Positions 1 through 7,158 of a stretch of DNA of 7,158 bases are shown one piece after another. Positions within the stretch are counted from its first letter, which is position 1; each line of letters starts with the position of its first letter. The notes below the pieces were generated by a model, which had not been told where the DNA came from, ran no database searches, and saw only the letters and a program-made list of their open reading frames with translations. Source of the DNA: a virus (taxonomy: Duplodnaviria > Heunggongvirae > Uroviricota > Caudoviricetes); IMG/VR virus record IMGVR_UViG_2541047701_000004; one strand, given 5' to 3'. Position numbers and translations under genes: made by a program.

Positions 1-402
<402 letters not shown>

Positions 403-414
403 TTCATTTGCTAA

Positions 415-996
415 TTACTTGTTTTTGCCATGCTTATCCTGAGCGATAAGTTCATCCATAAGGCTGTCTGCCTTCCCGGCAAACCTAATGTAGCACTCAT
501 GTCTATAGCTTTCAGGGATAACGAAACGGTCGGTATCAGGATATCCAACAGCAGGAGGCCTTCGAACGAGGAGTCCTTTTTTGAGCAATGAAATTGATTC
601 CTGAGCGCCCTTTTCCGTTTGTAGCTGGTTATTAGCGGCTACAGCGAATGCCAAATACGCTCTTTCTCCAAGAGTTAACGAATCAAACAAATCTTGCACA
701 TATTTTTCTTCTTTAGATTTGCGCTTCTGAGCAGCGAATACCTCAATTCTTTCAGTCACAGCGTGATAAGCGGAATTAACAACGCCGTTAAGCACATAGC
801 TAACGCAAAACAACAGGATGTAATACATCCAGTAATGAGGAAGGATTTCTGGATTATGCAGGTTTATCCATTCTTTTACGCTTACCGGCATAACAATAAT
901 CAATATGATCAGGATGATTAGCATATGAATCAACTGTTTAAGTGTCATTCCTTGCAGGAAAAAATGCATTAGTTCCTGCCACCATGAGTTGTTCAT
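415..996 (-). CDS. sieB: Superinfection exclusion protein B (SieB-like), membrane protein
   Basis: A 193-aa ORF on the strand opposite to ral, with a hydrophobic N-terminal region (LIHMLIILIILIIVMPV, YWMYYILLFCVSYVL). Its size, its position between the ral side and the expected N side, and its divergent orientation match lambda sieB. The sequence matches my recollection of lambda SieB. Confidence 0.8.
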   Translation of the reverse strand: MNNSWWQELMHFFLQGMTLKQLIHMLIILIILIIVMPVSVKEWINLHNPEILPHYWMYYILLFCVSYVLNGVVNSAYHAVTERIEVFAAQKRKSKEEKYVQDLFDSLTLGERAYLAFAVAANNQLQTEKGAQESISLLKKGLLVRRPPAVGYPDTDRFVIPESYRHECYIRFAGKADSLMDELIAQDKHGKNK

Positions 997-1139
997 CGGC
1001 GTTTCTCTTTTGCTCTCTGTAGGGGTGAATAGAGTTTATCCGATTTCTCGTTGTAGGGGTACACGAGAACCACCGAGCCTGATGTGGTTAAAAGACAGGC
1101 ACAATCTTTACTACCGCAATCCACTATTTAAGGTGATAT

Positions 1140-1226
1140 ATGGAAGAAGAATTTGAAGAGTTCGAAGAGCATCCTCAAGATGTGATGGAACAATACCAGG
1201 ACTATCCGTATGACTACGACTATTGA
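1140..1226 (+). CDS. Small acidic/aromatic peptide (28 aa, MEEEFEEFEEHPQDVMEQYQDYPYDYDY), lambda orf28-like
   Basis: ATG at 1140 is preceded by AGGTGA (1133-1138) with a very short 1-nt spacer. The 28-codon frame ends at TGA 1224-1226 and overlaps the ral start at 1210. A 28-aa ORF is annotated at this position in lambda (recollection). Expression is unproven. Confidence 0.35.
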   Translation: MEEEFEEFEEHPQDVMEQYQDYPYDYDY

Positions 1227-1410
1227 TACAAATCAATGGTGTGGACAATTCAAACGATGCAATGGATGCAAGCTGCAATCGGAATGCATGGTTAAGCCTG
1301 AAGAAATGTTTCCTGTAATGGAAGATGGGAAATATGTCGATAAATGGGCAATACGAACGACGGCAATGATTGCCAGAGAACTTGGTAAACAGAACAACAA
1401 AGCTGCCTGA
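1210..1410 (+). CDS. ral: Restriction alleviation protein Ral (anti-restriction, modulates type I R-M)
   Basis: A 66-aa ORF (MTTTIDTNQWCGQFKRCNGCKLQSECM...) whose length and sequence match lambda Ral as I recall it. It sits in the expected position upstream of ea10. Confidence 0.85.
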   Translation: MTTTIDTNQWCGQFKRCNGCKLQSECMVKPEEMFPVMEDGKYVDKWAIRTTAMIARELGKQNNKAA

Positions 1411-1546
1411 TAGTGGCCTTTATTTTTGGCATAAATAACAGAATAAACACTGCACTGTGTATTCATTCCAACGAGTGAATACACGGAGCAATGTCGCTCG
1501 TAACTAAACAGGAGCCGACTTGTTCTGATTATTGGAAATCTTCTTT

Positions 1547-1573
1547 GCCCTCCAGTGTGAGGGCGATTTTTTA
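1547..1573 (+). terminator. Candidate rho-independent terminator/attenuator upstream of ea10
   Basis: Stem GCCCTC (1547-1552), loop CAGTGT, stem GAGGGC (1559-1564), followed by GATTTTTTA. In lambda, pL transcription would read through such sites with N antitermination. Confidence 0.5.
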
Positions 1574-1592
1574 TCTATGAGGATATGAATAG

Positions 1593-1961
1593 ATGTCAAA
1601 CATCAAAAAATACATCATTGATTACGACTGGAAAGCATCAATAGAAATTGAAATTGACCATGACGTAATGACAGAGGAAAAACTTCACCAGATTAATAAT
1701 TTCTGGTCAGACTCTGAATACCGACTCAATAAACACGGCTCTGTATTAAATGCTGTATTAATCATGCTGGCGCAACATGCTCTGCTTATAGCAATTTCAA
1801 GCGACTTAAATGCATATGGTGTTGTGTGTGAGTTCGACTGGAATGATGGAAATGGTCAGGAAGGATGGCCTCCAATGGATGGTAGTGAAGGAATAAGAAT
1901 TACCGATATCGATACATCAGGAATATTTGATTCAGATGATATGACTATCAAGGCCGCCTGA
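1593..1961 (+). CDS. ea10: Ea10 early protein (lambda Ea10-like)
   Basis: A 122-aa ORF with SD TGAGGA at 1578-1583. Its length and sequence match lambda Ea10 as recalled, and it lies between ral and cIII. Confidence 0.85.
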   Translation: MSNIKKYIIDYDWKASIEIEIDHDVMTEEKLHQINNFWSDSEYRLNKHGSVLNAVLIMLAQHALLIAISSDLNAYGVVCEFDWNDGNGQEGWPPMDGSEGIRITDIDTSGIFDSDDMTIKAA

Positions 1962-1986
1962 GCGCGGCGTTACCGCATACCAATTA

Positions 1987-2007
1987 CGCTTCACTCGAGG
2001 CGTTTTT
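1987..2007 (+). terminator. Candidate hairpin plus U-run between ea10 and cIII
   Basis: CGCTTC (1987-1992), loop ACTC, GAGGCG (1997-2002, with one G-U pair), then TTTTT (2003-2007). It could be a terminator or a structure in the cIII leader. Confidence 0.4.
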
Positions 2008-2033
2008 CGTTATGTATAAATAAGGAGCACACC

Positions 2034-2198
2034 ATGCAATATGCCATTGCAGGGTGGCCTGTTGCTGGCTGCCCTTCCGAATCTTTACTTGAACGAATCA
2101 CCCGTAAATTACGTGACGGATGGAAACGCCTTATCGACATACTTAATCAGCCAGGAGTCCCAAAAAATGGATCAAACAATTATGGCTATCCAGACTAA
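2034..2198 (+). CDS. cIII: CIII (FtsH inhibitor that stabilises CII)
   Basis: Absent from the ORF track because it is under 60 aa. ATG at 2034 follows a strong SD TAAGGAG (2021-2027). The 54-aa translation is [54 protein letters not shown], matching lambda CIII. The stop TAA is at 2196-2198, overlapping the kil start. Confidence 0.9.
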   Translation: MQYAIAGWPVAGCPSESLLERITRKLRDGWKRLIDILNQPGVPKNGSNNYGYPD

Positions 2199-2310
2199 AT
2201 TCACTATCGCCACTTTTATTGGCGATGAAAAGATGTTTCGTGAGGCCGTCGACGCTTATAAAAAATGGATATTAATACTGAAACTGAGATCAAGCAAAAG
2301 CATTCACTAA
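2167..2310 (+). CDS. kil: Kil (host cell-division/FtsZ inhibitor)
   Basis: The 47-aa product [47 protein letters not shown] matches lambda Kil. The track's 89-aa ORF (2041..2310) is only the in-frame upstream extension; the true start is inferred as ATG 2167 by homology and by overlap with cIII. Confidence 0.85.
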
Positions 2311-2385
2311 CCCCCTTTCCTGTTTTCCTAATCAGCCTAGCATTTCGCGGGCGATATTTTCACAGCCATTTTCAGGAGTTCAGCC

Positions 2386-2682
2386 ATGAACGCTTATTAC
2401 ATTCAGGATCGTCTTGAGGCTCAGAGCTGGGCGCGTCACTACCAGCAGATCGCCCGTGAAGAGAAAGAGGCAGAACTGGCAGACGACATGGAAAAAGGCC
2501 TGCCCCAGCACCTGTTTGAATCGCTATGCATCGATCATTTACAACGCCACGGGGCCAGCAAAAAAGCCATTACCCGTGCGTTTGATGACGATGTTGAGTT
2601 TCAGGAGCGCATGGCAGAACACATCCGGTACATAGTTGAAACCATTGCTCACCATCAGGCTGATATTGATTCAGAGGTATAA
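2386..2682 (+). CDS. gam: Gam (RecBCD/SbcCD nuclease inhibitor), short GamS form
   Basis: The 98-aa ORF is near-identical to the C-terminal 98 aa of lambda Gam, with about four substitutions. The upstream extension that gives the 138-aa long form in lambda is out of frame here (see findings). Confidence 0.9.
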
Positions 2683-2687
2683 AACGG

Positions 2688-3473
2688 ATGAGTACAGCAC
2701 TCGCAACGCTGGCAGGGAAGCTGGCTGAACGTGTCGGCATGGATTCTGTCGACCCACAGGAACTGATCACCACTCTTCGCCAGACGGCATTTAAAGGTGA
2801 TGCCAGCGATGCGCAGTTCATCGCATTGTTGATCGTCGCCAACCAGTACGGCCTTAATCCGTGGACGAAAGAAATTTACGCCTTCCCTGATAAGCAGAAC
2901 GGCATTGTTCCGGTGGTGGGCGTTGATGGCTGGTCCCGCATCATCAATGAAAACCAGCAGTTTGATGGTATGGACTTTGAGCAGGACAATGAATCATGTA
3001 CATGCCGGATTTACCGCAAAGACCGCAATCATCCGATCTGCGTTACCGAGTGGATGGATGAATGCCGCCGCGAACCATTCAAAACCCGCGAAGGCAGAGA
3101 AATCACGGGGCCGTGGCAGTCGCATCCCAAACGGATGTTACGGCATAAAGCCATGATTCAGTGTGCCCGTCTGGCCTTCGGATTTGCTGGTATCTATGAC
3201 AAGGATGAAGCCGAGCGCATTGTCGAAAATACCGCATACACTGCAGAACGTCAGCCGGAACGCGACATCACTCCGGTTAACGATGAAACCATGCAGGAGA
3301 TTAACACTCTGCTGATTGCCCTGGACAAAACATGGGATGACGACTTATTGCCGCTCTGTTCCCAGATATTTCGCCGCGACATTCGCGCATCGTCAGAACT
3401 GACACAGGCCGAAGCAGTGAAAGCTCTTGGATTCCTGAAACAGAAAGCCACTGAGCAGAAGGTGGCAGCATGA
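2688..3473 (+). CDS. bet: Bet (Red beta single-strand annealing protein)
   Basis: The 261-aa ORF is essentially lambda Red beta ([38 protein letters not shown]...). Its stop overlaps the exo start as ATGA. Confidence 0.95.
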
Positions 3474-4150
3474 CACCGGACATTATCCTGCAGCGTACCG
3501 GGATCGACGTGAGAGCTGTCGAACAGGGGGATGATGCATGGCACAAATTACGGCTCGGCGTCATCACCGCTTCAGAAGTTCACAACGTGATAGCAAAGCC
3601 CCGCTCAGGAAAGAAGTGGCCTGACATGAAAATGTCCTACTTCCACACCCTGCTGGCTGAGGTTTGCACCGGTGTGGCTCCGGAAGTTAATGCTAAGGCG
3701 CTGGCGTGGGGAAAACAGTACGAGAACGACGCCAGAACCCTGTTTGAATTCACTTCCGGCGTGAATGTTACTGAATCCCCGATCATCTATCGCGACGAAA
3801 GTATGCGCACCGCCTGCTCTCCCGATGGTTTATGCAGTGACGGCAATGGCCTTGAGCTGAAATGCCCGTTTACCTCCCGGGATTTCATGAAGTTCCGGCT
3901 CGGTGGTTTCGAGGCCATAAAGTCGGCTTACATGGCCCAGGTGCAGTACAGCATGTGGGTGACACGAAAAGATGCCTGGTACTTTGCCAACTATGACCCA
4001 CGAATGAAGCGTGAAGGCCTGCATTATGTCGTGGTTGAGCGGGATGAAAAGTACATGGCGAGTTTTGACGAGATGGTGCCGGAGTTCATCGAAAAAATGG
4101 ACGAAGCACTGGCTGAAATTGGTTTTGTATTTGGAGAGCAATGGCGATGA
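3470..4150 (+). CDS. exo: Exo (Red alpha 5'-3' dsDNA exonuclease)
   Basis: The 226-aa ORF is essentially lambda exonuclease ([40 protein letters not shown]...). It is translationally coupled to bet upstream and to orf60a downstream. Confidence 0.95.
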
Positions 4151-4329
4151 CCCATCCTCACGATAATATCCGGGTAGGCGCGATCACTTTCGTCTACTCC
4201 GTTACAAAGCGAGGCTGGGTATTTCACGGTCTTTCTGTTATCCGAAATCCGCTGAAAGCCCAGCGGCTGGCTGAGGAGATAAATAATAAACGGGGGGCGG
4301 TATGCACAAAGCATCTCCTGTTGAGTTAA
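4147..4329 (+). CDS. Orf60a-like protein of the lambda exo-xis region
   Basis: ATG at 4147 overlaps the exo stop as ATGA, giving a 60-aa product ([29 protein letters not shown]...). Its position and length match lambda orf60a. The track's 62-aa ORF starts two codons earlier. Confidence 0.8.
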
Positions 4330-4493
4330 GAACGAGTATTGATTTGGCACATAGCCTTGCTCAAATTGGAGTCAGGTTTGTGCCAATACCAGCAGAAACA
4401 GACGAAGAATTTCATACGTTAGCCACATCCCTTTCACAAAAGCTGGAAATGATGGTGGCGAAAGCAGAAGCAGATGAGAGAGACCAGGTATGA
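4302..4493 (+). CDS. Orf63-like protein of the lambda exo-xis region
   Basis: A 63-aa ORF overlapping orf60a by 28 nt, the same geometry I recall for lambda. The product is acidic and helical ([26 protein letters not shown]...). Confidence 0.8.
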   Translation: MHKASPVELRTSIDLAHSLAQIGVRFVPIPAETDEEFHTLATSLSQKLEMMVAKAEADERDQV

Positions 4494-4573
4494 CAACCAC
4501 TGAATGCATTTTTCTGGCAGCGGGCTTCATATTCTGTGTGCTTATGCTTGCCGACATGGGGCTTGTTCAGTGA
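4490..4573 (+). CDS. Candidate 27-aa hydrophobic peptide (MTTTECIFLAAGFIFCVLMLADMGLVQ)
   Basis: ATG at 4490 overlaps the orf63 stop as ATGA, a classic coupling arrangement. The product is a single predicted transmembrane helix. No homolog is recalled, so this is speculative. Confidence 0.25.
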   Translation: MTTTECIFLAAGFIFCVLMLADMGLVQ

Positions 4574-4686
4574 CACCTCAGCAAGAAAACGCCCTTCGCA
4601 GCATTGCCCGTCAGGCTAATTCTGAAATCAAAAAAGTCAGACAGCAGTTTCCAAAAACGTCAATGACATTTGCCGTAGCGTACTGA
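4504..4686 (+). CDS. Hypothetical protein, possibly orf61-like (Cys/His-rich N-terminus)
   Basis: A 60-aa ORF in the position where lambda carries orf61. An upstream in-frame ATG at 4474 is cut off by TGA at 4501-4503. The assignment and start are uncertain. Confidence 0.3.
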   Translation: MHFSGSGLHILCAYACRHGACSVTPQQENALRSIARQANSEIKKVRQQFPKTSMTFAVAY

Positions 4687-4803
4687 AGAAGCACCGCGAA
4701 ACGGTAACGCTGAAGGGATTCACACCGACTCATTTAAGCCTGGCAATCGGCATGTTAAACGGCGTCTTTAAGGAACGATGAACATGAAAAGCAAAATTAT
4801 CAG

Positions 4804-4824
4804 GGAGCTACAGGCTCCTTTTTT
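4804..4824 (+). terminator. Candidate rho-independent terminator
   Basis: GGAGC (4804-4808), loop TACAG, GCTCC (4814-4818), followed by TTTTTT (4819-4824) then ATT. Confidence 0.45.
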
Positions 4825-4879
4825 ATTGTTCGCATTCACCCTCAAGCGTATTAACCAACAGTTCAGGGATTAATGAAAG

Positions 4880-5101
4880 ATGGCAGACATCATTGATTCA
4901 GCATCAGAAATAGAAGAATTACAGCGCAACACAGCAATAAAAATGCGCCGCCTGAACTACCTGGCTGTATCTGCCACTCATTGTTGTGAGTGTGGCGATC
5001 CGATAGATGAACGAAGACGCCTGGCCGTTCAGGGTTGTCGGACTTGCGCCAGTTGCCAGCAAGATCTGGAGCTTATCCGCAAACAAAGGGGGATTAAGTG
5101 A
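4880..5101 (+). CDS. DksA/TraR-family C4 zinc-finger protein (lambda Orf73-like RNA polymerase-binding regulator)
   Basis: The 73-aa ORF has a Cys-x2-Cys-x17-Cys-x2-Cys motif (CCEC...CASC) that matches the DksA/TraR zinc ribbon. Its size and its position in the exo-xis region match lambda orf73. Confidence 0.85.
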   Translation: MADIIDSASEIEELQRNTAIKMRRLNYLAVSATHCCECGDPIDERRRLAVQGCRTCASCQQDLELIRKQRGIK

Positions 5102-5427
5102 TGGCTAACCTGCAACTTGCTGTTAAAAGTGAATACTTCGATGCCATGATTCGCGGAGAGAAAACGGAAGAGTATCGCTTGTGTAATGACTACTGGAATA
5201 AGCGAATTATGTTCCGGGAATATGACCGCCTGATTATCACAAAGGGATATCCGAAGCGCGACGATTCCAGTCGCAGAATTGATGTTCCGTATGACGGATA
5301 TGAAGTGAAGACAATCACACATCCGCACTTTGGCGATAAACCGGTAAAGGTGTTCGCTATAAAGGTGAATATCAGCACTGAATATCAATCCGCACAACAC
5401 AAGGTCAAGAATGTTCAGAGTGATTGA
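5101..5427 (+). CDS. ASCH/PUA-like domain protein (DUF3850-like), function unknown
   Basis: The N-terminal segment AVKSEYFDAMIRGEKTEEYRLCNDYW resembles the ASCH-type signature (kPEYFeai.sGkKTfEiRkND) as I recall it. The likely start is ATG 5101, overlapping the orf73 stop as TGATG; the track begins at GTG 5098. There is no counterpart in lambda as I recall it. Confidence 0.7.
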   Translation: MANLQLAVKSEYFDAMIRGEKTEEYRLCNDYWNKRIMFREYDRLIITKGYPKRDDSSRRIDVPYDGYEVKTITHPHFGDKPVKVFAIKVNISTEYQSAQHKVKNVQSD

Positions 5428-5650
5428 CCCTAACACCTGGTACGTCGACCACCACGGCACTCCCTGCAAAATCCTGCGTTCTACCCACAACAAAGTTCAC
5501 TACATCCGAAAAGGCAGAACATGTATCGCCAGCATGTTCCGCTTTAATCATGACTTTGAACCTGTGAATAAAGCTGATGCAGATCGGATAGCAGAAGAGA
5601 TCGAAACGGCAGAACACATTAAGAAGTTACGTGACATGCGCAGGAAATAG
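5411..5650 (+). CDS. Hypothetical 79-aa protein (His/Cys-containing N-terminal half, basic helical C-terminus)
   Basis: ATG at 5411 lies 6 nt after AAGG (5401-5404) and overlaps the preceding gene by 17 nt, on the same strand as its neighbours. It occupies the position of ea8.5 in lambda but I do not recognise it as Ea8.5. Confidence 0.6.
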   Translation: MFRVIDPNTWYVDHHGTPCKILRSTHNKVHYIRKGRTCIASMFRFNHDFEPVNKADADRIAEEIETAEHIKKLRDMRRK

Positions 5651-5789
5651 AAAAATTGATAAATTCAATACTGCATTTCTCAGCATTAAATTTATCTCTA
5701 TGACCAGTCAAGAGATGTACCTGCCATGAGCTTAATATCATGTCAGATATATCGGTCACAAACTCCCTCAGCAGCTAAGAGGAGGACAA

Positions 5790-6026
5790 ATGTCTCGACT
5801 AATCACTTTACAGGACTGGGCTAAAGAAGAATTTGGGGACTTAGCACCAAGTGAGCGAGTTCTGAAAAAATACGCGCAAGGGAAAATGATGGCCCCACCC
5901 GCTATAAAAGTTGGTCGCTACTGGATGATTGACCGAAATTCCCGTTTTGTAGGAACGCTTGCAGAACCGCAACTCCCAATAAACGCAAACCCAAAACTCC
6001 AAAGGATAATCGCTGATGGCTGCTAG
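5790..6026 (+). CDS. xis: Excisionase (lambda Xis-like winged-helix protein)
   Basis: Strong SD AAGAGGAGG (5777-5785). The 78-aa product begins MSRLITLQDWAKEE...PPAIKVGRYWMI, parallel to lambda Xis MYLTLQEWNARQ...PPPVKDGREYLF. It overlaps int by 11 nt. Confidence 0.85.
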   Translation: MSRLITLQDWAKEEFGDLAPSERVLKKYAQGKMMAPPAIKVGRYWMIDRNSRFVGTLAEPQLPINANPKLQRIIADGC

Positions 6027-7158
6027 ACCCCGATCTCACAAAATCTCTATACCCAATTTATATTGCAAATTAGATAAGCGAACCGGAAAGGTATATTGGC
6101 AATACAAACATCCACTATCCGGTCGTTTTCATAGCTTAGGAACTGATGAGAATGAAGCAAAACAAGTTGCTACTGAAGCAAATACCATTATTGCTGAACA
6201 ACGTACCAGACAAATATTAAGCGTCAATGAGCGTCTGGAAAGAATGAAAGGCAGGCGCTCAGACATTACGGTGACAGAATGGCTTGATAAATATATTTCT
6301 ATCCAAGAGGACAGGCTGCAACATAATGAACTAAGACCCAACTCCTATCGGCAAAAAGGCAAACCCATTCGTCTTTTCCGTGAGCATTGTGGAATGCAAC
6401 ACCTCAAGGATATTACCGCACTTGATATTGCCGAAATAATTGATGCTGTAAAGGCTGAAGGTCATAACAGGATGGCGCAAGTCGTGAGAATGGTGTTGAT
6501 CGACGTCTTCAAAGAAGCACAACACGCAGGACATGTTCCGCCAGGATTTAACCCAGCGCAGGCAACAAAACAACCGCGAAATCGAGTAAACCGCCAAAGA
6601 TTGTCACTGCCCGAATGGCAGGCAATATTTGACAGCGTAAGCAGACGGCAGCCCTATTTAAAATGCGGCATGCTACTTGCTCTTGTTACTGGACAACGTT
6701 TAGGCGATATCTGCAATTTGAAATTCTCTGATATATGGGACGACATGTTGCACATTACTCAGGAAAAAACCGGTTCAAAACTTGCTATTCCGCTTAACCT
6801 GAAATGCGATGCTCTGAATATTACCCTTCGTGAAGTTATATCTCAGTGCAGGGATGCTGTTGTTAGTAAATATCTGGTCCATTACCGTCACACTACCTCT
6901 CAAGCAAACAGAGGAGACCAGGTTTCTGCGAATACTCTGACAACGGCTTTTAAAAAGGCCCGGGAAAAATGTGGCATAAAATGGGAGCAAGGAACTGCGC
7001 CCACATTTCATGAGCAGCGATCTCTGTCAGAACGGTTATATCGGGAACAGGGTCTGGATACGCAAAAGTTGTTAGGCCATAAATCCAGAAAAATGACCGA
7101 CCGATACAATGATGATCGTGGTAAAGACTGGATTATCGTAGATATCAAAACAGCATAG
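6016..7158 (+). CDS. int: Tyrosine integrase (lambda Int family)
   Basis: A 380-aa ORF with the conserved lambda-Int C-terminal signature ...TFHEQRSLSERLY...LLGHKSRKMTDRYNDDRGKDW (compare lambda ...TFHELRSLSARLY...LLGHKSDTMASQYRDDRGREW). The stop codon is the last three bases of the window. Confidence 0.95.
   Translation: MAARPRSHKISIPNLYCKLDKRTGKVYWQYKHPLSGRFHSLGTDENEAKQVATEANTIIAEQRTRQILSVNERLERMKGRRSDITVTEWLDKYISIQEDRLQHNELRPNSYRQKGKPIRLFREHCGMQHLKDITALDIAEIIDAVKAEGHNRMAQVVRMVLIDVFKEAQHAGHVPPGFNPAQATKQPRNRVNRQRLSLPEWQAIFDSVSRRQPYLKCGMLLALVTGQRLGDICNLKFSDIWDDMLHITQEKTGSKLAIPLNLKCDALNITLREVISQCRDAVVSKYLVHYRHTTSQANRGDQVSANTLTTAFKKAREKCGIKWEQGTAPTFHEQRSLSERLYREQGLDTQKLLGHKSRKMTDRYNDDRGKDWIIVDIKTA

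Follow-up and report, generated by a model that had tools for sequence, protein, structure and literature searches.

The stretch of DNA analyzed here is a 7,158-nt window from the IMG/VR virus record IMGVR_UViG_2541047701_000004 (Caudoviricetes), and the segment of interest (positions 4494–5789) lies between orf63 and xis, inside a lambdoid phage's exo-xis region. In this segment the TraR-like gene orf73 is followed by a gene for an ASCH-like protein and by a gene for a protein of the DUF4222 family. Sequence comparison indicates that the segment is very probably the variable, attP-proximal end of the early-left (pL) operon carried by a phage 21-like lambdoid prophage at icd in Escherichia coli; this level of confidence covers the identity and evolutionary account of the segment, not the biochemical predictions made below. 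The ASCH and DUF4222 genes are separate mosaic cassettes, each of which is found without the other, and they are followed by a 21-type xis-int module. The feature is ordinary and already known: it is the classical phage 21 arrangement, annotated identical copies are public and exo-xis mosaicism has been published, so that it carries little weight as a discovery.

Source and Relatives of the Segment

Over its full length the window matches the chromosome of E. coli MS15236, a cerebrospinal fluid isolate, at 100% identity; in that strain it forms the left arm of a lambdoid prophage that has integrated at icd. Positions 402–7158 were also recovered at 100% identity in IHE3034, APEC O18, PMV-1 and other strains, with icd adjacent. 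Among phages, positions 4300–6100 match PhiR63_2 at 100%, ev207 at 99.9% and classical phage 21 at 97.6% identity, with the arrangement as such shared by PhiR63_2 and ev207 at 99.8–100%; positions 2800–7158 likewise match phage 21 at 97.6% nucleotide identity. The annotated phage 21 genome (OL657228, genes CPT_21_36 to CPT_21_40) shares with the window the series orf63, an orf61-type gene, a small peptide, TraR/orf73, ASCH, DUF4222, xis and int, with attP at icd. The ASCH protein of phage 21 is 100% identical to that of the window, and its open reading frame (ORF) is already present, unannotated and with 100% protein identity, in the 1991 phage 21 xis-int record M61865. Phage 21 differs in that its 71-aa orf61-type gene is intact where the window has a 4-nt deletion, and in its DUF4222 protein, which is 88.6% identical to that of the window with the differences grouped in the C-terminal helix.

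A survey of 5426 complete E. coli genomes recovered part of positions 5092–5789, that is at least one of the two cargo genes, from 2980 (~55%), and the ASCH and DUF4222 genes together from 655. In addition, RefSeq already names the segment genes ‘TraR/DksA family transcriptional regulator’, ‘ASCH domain-containing protein’ and ‘DUF4222 domain-containing protein’. The segment is thus not unusual, as the same arrangement is found in phage 21, ev207 and PhiR63_2 and, under the same RefSeq names, in hundreds of complete E. coli genomes. A conserved block from exo to orf73 followed by variable genes is likewise a picture already published (PMC4195576, PMC8614690).

The segment lies within the exo-xis region, with exo at 3470–4150, xis at 5790–6026 and every ORF between them on the plus strand. 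The conserved block of this region has been described as orf60a-orf63-orf61-orf73-ea22 (PMC8614690), and the window does not hold all of it: orf60a, orf63 and orf73 are present, but orf61 is frameshifted and ea22 is absent. As ea22 is absent from phage 21 as well, the published conserved block stops at orf73 in 21-type phages.

Comparison With Lambda

A blastn search against the lambda genome (NC_001416) gave one collinear match, from window positions 1017–5091 to lambda 34480–30402, at 97.1% identity, and after 5091 nothing matched lambda except 60 nt within int. The window thus resembles lambda in the collinear stretch at 97% identity from upstream of ral through orf73 and in the position of these genes in the pL operon. 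The orf73 product is 92% identical to lambda Orf73 (tblastn) and matches the Pfam family zf-dskA_traR, in agreement with the earlier statement that a TraR-like orf73 had been kept. Downstream of orf73, lambda has ea22, ea8.5 and orf55 where the window has the unrelated ASCH and DUF4222 genes. Searches by tblastn found no match to Ea22, Ea8.5 or orf55 in the window and no homologue of ASCH or DUF4222 in the 48.5-kb lambda genome (best E 0.24). The proposal that this slot holds cargo different from that of lambda, and that lambda lacks both genes, was therefore upheld. The interval between the stop of orf63 and the start of xis is 1296 bp long in the window and 1926 bp in lambda; the difference of 630 bp fits the first estimate of about 0.6 kb. 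The Xis and Int proteins are 21% and 35% identical to those of lambda, respectively.

Collinear near-identity with lambda had been claimed from sieB through orf63. It holds for positions 1017–5091 but not for sieB (415–996, minus strand; annotated as superinfection exclusion protein B), the allele of which is unrelated to that of lambda (BLASTP E 0.6). Since identity to lambda begins only at 1017 and sieB differs, a further mosaic breakpoint is indicated between sieB and ral.

Mosaic Breakpoints and Independent Cassettes

Alignment of the window to lambda and other lambdoid phages, as initially recommended, located switches in similarity at 5091, at 5084–5391 and from 5407 onward. Similarity to lambda and to the Shiga toxin phage Phi24B ends at the same position (breakpoint 5091/5092), 10 nt before the orf73 stop, and in lambda, Phi24B and the window alike the next gene begins at this stop. 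The shared switch suggests that the conserved 3′ end of orf73 acts as a common exchange point. Phi24B also has the conserved exo-to-orf73 block and a DUF4222 gene (vb_24B_1c) immediately before xis. Unlike the window, however, it has an Ea22-like DUF550/DUF551 protein plus four further ORFs separating orf73 from the DUF4222 gene, lacks the ASCH gene, has an intact Orf61 of 93 aa and encodes a different integrase.

The two cargo genes have different relatives. The ASCH cassette (5084–5391) is 93.5% identical to a prophage at ybhC (L006), in which the ASCH gene is found between a DUF4752 gene upstream and lambda-type orf55-xis-int downstream; overall, the gene was found beside DUF4752, DUF551 or DUF550 genes, with lambda-type int. 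From 5407 onward (the DUF4222 gene, spacer, xis and int), the window is 98.7% identical to another, otherwise near-identical icd prophage (L005), in which the DUF4222 gene directly follows orf73 and the ASCH gene is absent. The spacer contains an imperfect inverted repeat (5658–5696, 16-bp stem) and is far longer than the 39 nt that lambda has in this place. It is found at 100% identity beside unrelated upstream genes in other genomes (H54 and H55), which assigns it to the 21-type xis-int module. The cassettes would have been joined by recombination at conserved gene-boundary sequences, for example the 3′ end of orf73.

The ORF map and the sequence agree with the gene positions first reported, with the TGATG stop/start overlap of orf73 and the ASCH gene (5099–5103) and with the 17-nt overlap of the ASCH and DUF4222 genes (5411–5427). 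Most ASCH homologues are 93–96 aa long. The window protein has a core of ~93 aa, and its final ~14 residues stem from read-through: TAT stands in place of the usual TAA stop, and the ORF runs 14 codons on, into the DUF4222 gene. The 17-nt overlap is thus due to the loss of the usual stop codon and is not evidence of a designed module.

Table 1. Features of the segment and its borders, in window positions (ORFs from the ORF map).
Feature	Positions	Strand	Remarks
orf63	4302–4493	+	
Decayed orf61 homologue	4474–4686	+	Lambda-type start at 4474, in-frame TGA at 4501; ATG at 4504 opens a 60-aa ORF
orf61-like ORF	4504–4686	+	
Frameshifted copy of the C-terminal 71-aa orf61-type region	4570–4781	+	Pseudogene ‘cell division protein ZapA, frameshifted’ in the Prokaryotic Genome Annotation Pipeline (PGAP)
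31-aa peptide ORF	4778–4873	+	MNMKSKIIRELQAPFLLFAFTLKRINQQFRD; common to lambda and phage 21
Terminator-like hairpin	4802–4830	+	GC-rich 8-bp stem, then TTTTTTATT T-run; inside the 31-aa ORF; also in lambda; -10.2 kcal/mol
orf73	4880–5101	+	TraR/DksA-type C4 zinc-finger protein, 73 aa; Pfam zf-dskA_traR, E 6.7e-9; PHROG 54
ASCH-fold gene	5101 (ATG) or 5098 (GTG) to 5427	+	108 aa (109 aa from GTG)
DUF4222 (RgdR-family) gene	5411–5650	+	79 aa; Pfam PF13973, E 3.6e-19
AT-rich spacer	5651–5789		139 nt
xis, phage 21-type	5790–6026	+	Prophage at icd
int, phage 21-type	6016–7158	+	Prophage at icd

The ASCH-Like Protein

The protein encoded after orf73 matches PHROG 625, to which no function is assigned, and an NCBIfam search with it gave no match. 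Its family is large, comprising 654 clusters at 90% identity across the Enterobacterales, and is well conserved: in a sample of 40 sequences (Escherichia, Salmonella, Klebsiella, Enterobacter, Citrobacter, Erwinia and others) 33 columns were invariant, and the ratio of nonsynonymous to synonymous substitution rates (dN/dS) of the core was 0.14. A confident AlphaFold2 (AF2) model predicted a beta-barrel with flanking helices that can be superimposed on solved ASCH domains. ASCH proteins are defined by an octapeptide near the N-terminus, GxKxx[E/T/S]xR, which is present in the window protein as G19-E-K21-T-E-E24-Y-R26, with all four motif residues invariant in the 40 homologues and at the same residue positions as in YqfB. 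We accept membership in the ASCH superfamily because of the modelled fold together with the motif; the protein would then be a minimal beta-barrel of PUA-like type, with an octapeptide of the ‘GKER’ class.

Several results weigh against this assignment and the function derived from it. The match to Pfam ASCH (PF04266) reached 14.3 bits, below the cut-off of 21.2, and covered 23 residues only. Searches of PDB sequences with phmmer yielded 0 matches at E <= 10, a profile of the 40 sequences recovered spurious PDB matches only (xylosidase, ribosomal protein L15), and hhalign of the ASCH-like profile against E. coli YqfB gave a probability of 0.1%. The Foldseek E-values of the model are weak (0.039). 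In addition, ZmASCH is a ribonuclease, i.e., some ASCH proteins are not hydrolases of N4-acetylcytidine (ac4C) on the free nucleoside (PMC5615036). Although the Pfam score lies under its cut-off, the agreement of fold and octapeptide bears out the label ‘108-aa ASCH-like’ that the protein had been given initially.

Sequence similarity of the window protein to YqfB (the E. coli ac4C amidohydrolase), TthASCH, ZmASCH and the Enterococcus faecalis protein 3iuw is not significant. These known ASCH proteins have Thr at motif position 24, where the window protein has Glu, and the window core is shorter. According to a 2026 preprint, the GKTR and GKER classes of ASCH proteins both remove ac4C from tRNA, with Lys and Glu being essential. 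For the window protein, we predict RNA binding and action on a modified nucleoside as the most likely activity. The best current model is that it removes ac4C from host tRNA, a prediction we make tentatively and with less than even confidence. Our literature search found no functional study of ASCH-domain prophage proteins or of the phage 21 exo-xis region.

The DUF4222 Protein

The 79-aa protein had been described as unrelated to lambda. It indeed has no lambda counterpart, but it is not an orphan, as it matches Pfam PF13973 (DUF4222) over residues 4–53 with 68.5 bits (cut-off 27) and belongs to PHROG 285. Homologues occur in other lambdoid phages at 33–45% identity, among them vb_24B_1c of Phi24B (38% over the full length, E 2e-14), of which we found no discussion in PMC10789677. 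The full-length family is narrow: an exhaustive search of 1.84 billion representatives recovered only 47 members, clustered at 50% identity and short in every case, and no informative DUF4222 domain fusion, and phmmer against the PDB found 0 matches. The AF2 model (mean per-residue confidence, pLDDT, of 87) predicts a five-stranded small barrel (residues 10–52) resembling SH3/Tudor domains and a 25-residue helix (54–78), and the protein is basic (isoelectric point 9.6). The conserved residues C19 and C38 were considered as a metal site and rejected, as C19 is not conserved in RgdR.

RgdR (ECs1581), encoded by prophage CP-933C of enterohaemorrhagic E. coli (EHEC), is an activator of LEE1 and type III secretion and a repressor of motility, and its DNA binding is nonspecific (PMC3378721, PMC10877973). 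We found that RgdR, taken from the Sakai genome, scores 82 bits on PF13973. Like the window protein, RgdR of EHEC O157:H7 (CP-933C/Sp7) is a small, basic, prophage-encoded member of the DUF4222 family. It differs in being 99 aa long, with an N-terminal extension that carries an RGD motif, and in being encoded on a P4-like element beside a primase gene. By analogy to RgdR, the window protein may be a small pleiotropic modulator of transcription that works through low-specificity nucleic-acid binding or through contact with the transcription machinery, a tentative prediction in which we have about as much confidence as in ac4C removal by its neighbor. Set against it are the distance of the relationship (BLASTP, 24% identity over 68 aa, E 7e-6); the absence from the 79 residues of the RGD motif, which matters for activation of type III secretion by RgdR and opposite which P-N-T is aligned, upstream of Y11; and dN/dS values of 0.46 and 0.94, based on few substitutions and not clearly low. 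The LEE1 and type III secretion target of RgdR is presumably not to be expected in the host background of this prophage.

The DUF4222 gene was last or next to last before xis, and in the same orientation, in all 8 contexts examined, despite differing Xis and Int types. These contexts, which were not chosen at random, are the present window and phage 21, E. coli A5, Phi24B, YYZ-2008, POCJ13, Klebsiella phage 2b and ASU11. For two of them, Shigella phage POCJ13 and Klebsiella phage 2b, which have no annotated xis, the DUF4222 gene itself was considered as the excisionase gene. This was rejected, since both have an unannotated xis ORF of helix-turn-helix type between the DUF4222 gene and int. Public annotation thus misses an excisionase-like ORF in POCJ13 (L011, 1994–2458 / 2076–2282) and in Klebsiella phage 2b, where the DUF4222 gene is unannotated as well (L012, 1798–2040 and 2053–2388).

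Proposed Expression and Joint Role

After infection or induction, anti-terminated pL transcription would yield the products of both genes in the delayed-early phase, and translation of the ASCH gene may be coupled to the orf73 stop through TGATG. The ASCH gene is preceded by a GGGGG Shine-Dalgarno-like run and the DUF4222 gene by a weak AAGG. A consensus scan for promoters and terminators found sites no more numerous than in shuffled sequence, and the hairpin in Table 1 is a consensus match only. The ASCH product would act on RNA and the DUF4222 product would modulate transcription, and together they could tune host physiology. This proposal is consistent with reports that exo-xis regions have pleiotropic effects (PMC3824215, PMC10789677).

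More specific, new roles can be imagined for either protein. The ASCH protein could be an eraser of tRNA ac4C, or of another RNA modification, that reprograms translation or disarms tRNA-directed defense after induction, and the DUF4222 protein could be a conserved factor of Tudor-like type that makes contact with RNA polymerase or with the excision machinery and adjusts the decision on lysis-lysogeny or on excision. That either of them has such a role we regard as unlikely.

Alternative Explanations

The tight packing of orf73, ASCH and DUF4222, with the TGATG and 17-nt overlaps, led the initial annotation to suggest one functional module. Such a co-adapted set, for example an anti-defense or host-takeover unit with interdependent parts, would also be in keeping with the joint occurrence of the ASCH and DUF4222 genes, which phages 21, ev207 and PhiR63_2 share with 655 complete genomes of E. 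coli. However, the genomes with at least one of the genes number 2980, the icd prophage L005 has DUF4222 after orf73 without ASCH, and the ASCH gene is found with other neighbors, as in L006. Because each gene occurs alone, and because the boundaries of similarity fall at gene borders and the overlap reflects a lost stop codon, we find the single-module interpretation unsupported and highly improbable. Its anti-defense or host-takeover component likewise found no support. PADLOC gave no match at E <= 0.1 to the orf61-like, orf73, ASCH or DUF4222 proteins, although its models cover defense and not counter-defense, which makes this a mere absence of evidence, and we found no paper in the literature supporting an anti-defense role for either cargo gene. 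Less probable still, to the point of being nearly negligible, is the reading of both ORFs as filler of a cryptic prophage, either in decay or without function. In its favor, the adjoining orf61 homologue is frameshifted, an IS100 element is inserted upstream in this strain, and the DUF4222 dN/dS is not clearly below 1. Against this stand the intact state of both ORFs in phages that are inducible or form plaques (ev207, PhiR63_2 and phage 21), the low dN/dS of the ASCH core and its invariant columns across several genera, the conservation of DUF4222 over its full length in Phi24B, and confident AF2 models for both proteins.

Two further alternatives leave the two cassettes independent and concern what their products do. 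The ASCH fold might read modified DNA bases, in the manner of PUA-like domains of the EVE, SRA and YTH type, and thereby protect from or interfere with modification-dependent restriction, rather than belong to an RNA enzyme; we judge this improbable. We hold a similarly low opinion of the idea that, rather than being a general regulator, the DUF4222 protein assists site-specific recombination or xis/int expression as an accessory factor. Its constant place and orientation before xis, retained at only 33–45% protein identity, would be explained by such a role. However, RgdR, the sole member studied, is encoded ~2 kb from int in a P4-like element, adjoins a primase gene and regulates host genes. 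Furthermore, the place before xis may be no more than the pL operon's distal end, which in lambda is occupied by the unrelated orf55, and the contexts sampled were few and not random. Independent cassettes, with a putative RNA-directed ASCH protein and a candidate transcription modulator of the DUF4222 family, remain our preferred interpretation.

The orf61 Region and Neighboring Features

The orf61 region, flagged as uncertain at the outset, proved to be damaged. Relative to lambda it has a G>T nonsense change (the TGA at 4501), a 1-nt deletion in an A-run and a 4-nt deletion, in line with the frameshifted pseudogene called by PGAP. The lambda Orf61 protein aligned to the window by tblastn at 94% identity over 54 aa. 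In the 60-aa ORF that remains the last 14 residues are out of frame, and only 46 match the family. The orf61-type form is intact in phage 21, the E. coli A5 prophage and Phi24B (93 aa; the phage 21 and A5 annotations cover the C-terminal 71 aa); family coordinates are 4474–4781 in the window, 3340–3525 in lambda (L003) and 2051–2332 in Phi24B (L009). The intact form bears the PGAP name ‘cell division protein ZapA’, but the Pfam ZapA match lies under the cut-off of 23.8 bits (18.5 bits for the window, with a family range of 16–18.5). As read from these lesions, the window homologue is most likely inactive. Lambda Orf61 has itself been described as a truncated variant with one extra A in the A-run (PMC8614690). 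The window has the A-run of the phage 21 type, an independent 4-nt deletion and the TGA at 4501, which points to at least two independent inactivations of orf61.

A 31-aa peptide in this region of lambda has been seen by ribosome profiling (PMC8614690). The ORF at 4778–4873 probably corresponds to this peptide, and the phage 21 annotation holds a 29-aa version of it (CPT_21_39). The hairpin inside this ORF may be one of the predicted terminators common to lambda and Phi24B (PMC4195576).

Other observations concern the remainder of the window. Positions 1–401 hold the 3′ end of IS100 (IS21 family, with the istB helper ATPase; the end of the IstB ORF is at 43–336), directly left of sieB. This part was matched only in MS15236 among the matches listed, while related ST95-type strains match from 402 at 100%. 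Since the insertion lies between the pL-proximal genes and the remainder of the early-left operon, expression driven by pL may be blocked across the window. The sole Rfam match is Lambda_thermo, the cIII thermoregulator, at 2021–2079 (88.5 bits), which is outside the segment and expected for a lambda-type cIII. In the Gam region (2265–2682), a short 98-aa ORF (2386–2682) alone is intact, and PGAP annotates this 98-aa form; the upstream ORF, which would give the 138-aa form annotated in lambda, is in another frame and stops at 2417.

Implications

For the architecture of the exo-xis region, the comparison places the end of the ‘conserved’ orf60a-to-ea22 block at orf73 in 21-type phages, with lambda, Phi24B and phage 21 switching at the same nucleotide. 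Two very common accessory genes of E. coli prophages, of which at least one is found in ~55% of complete genomes, gain concrete functional predictions, and the synteny of DUF4222 genes before xis connects RgdR, a virulence regulator of EHEC, with a broader family of early genes in lambdoid phages.

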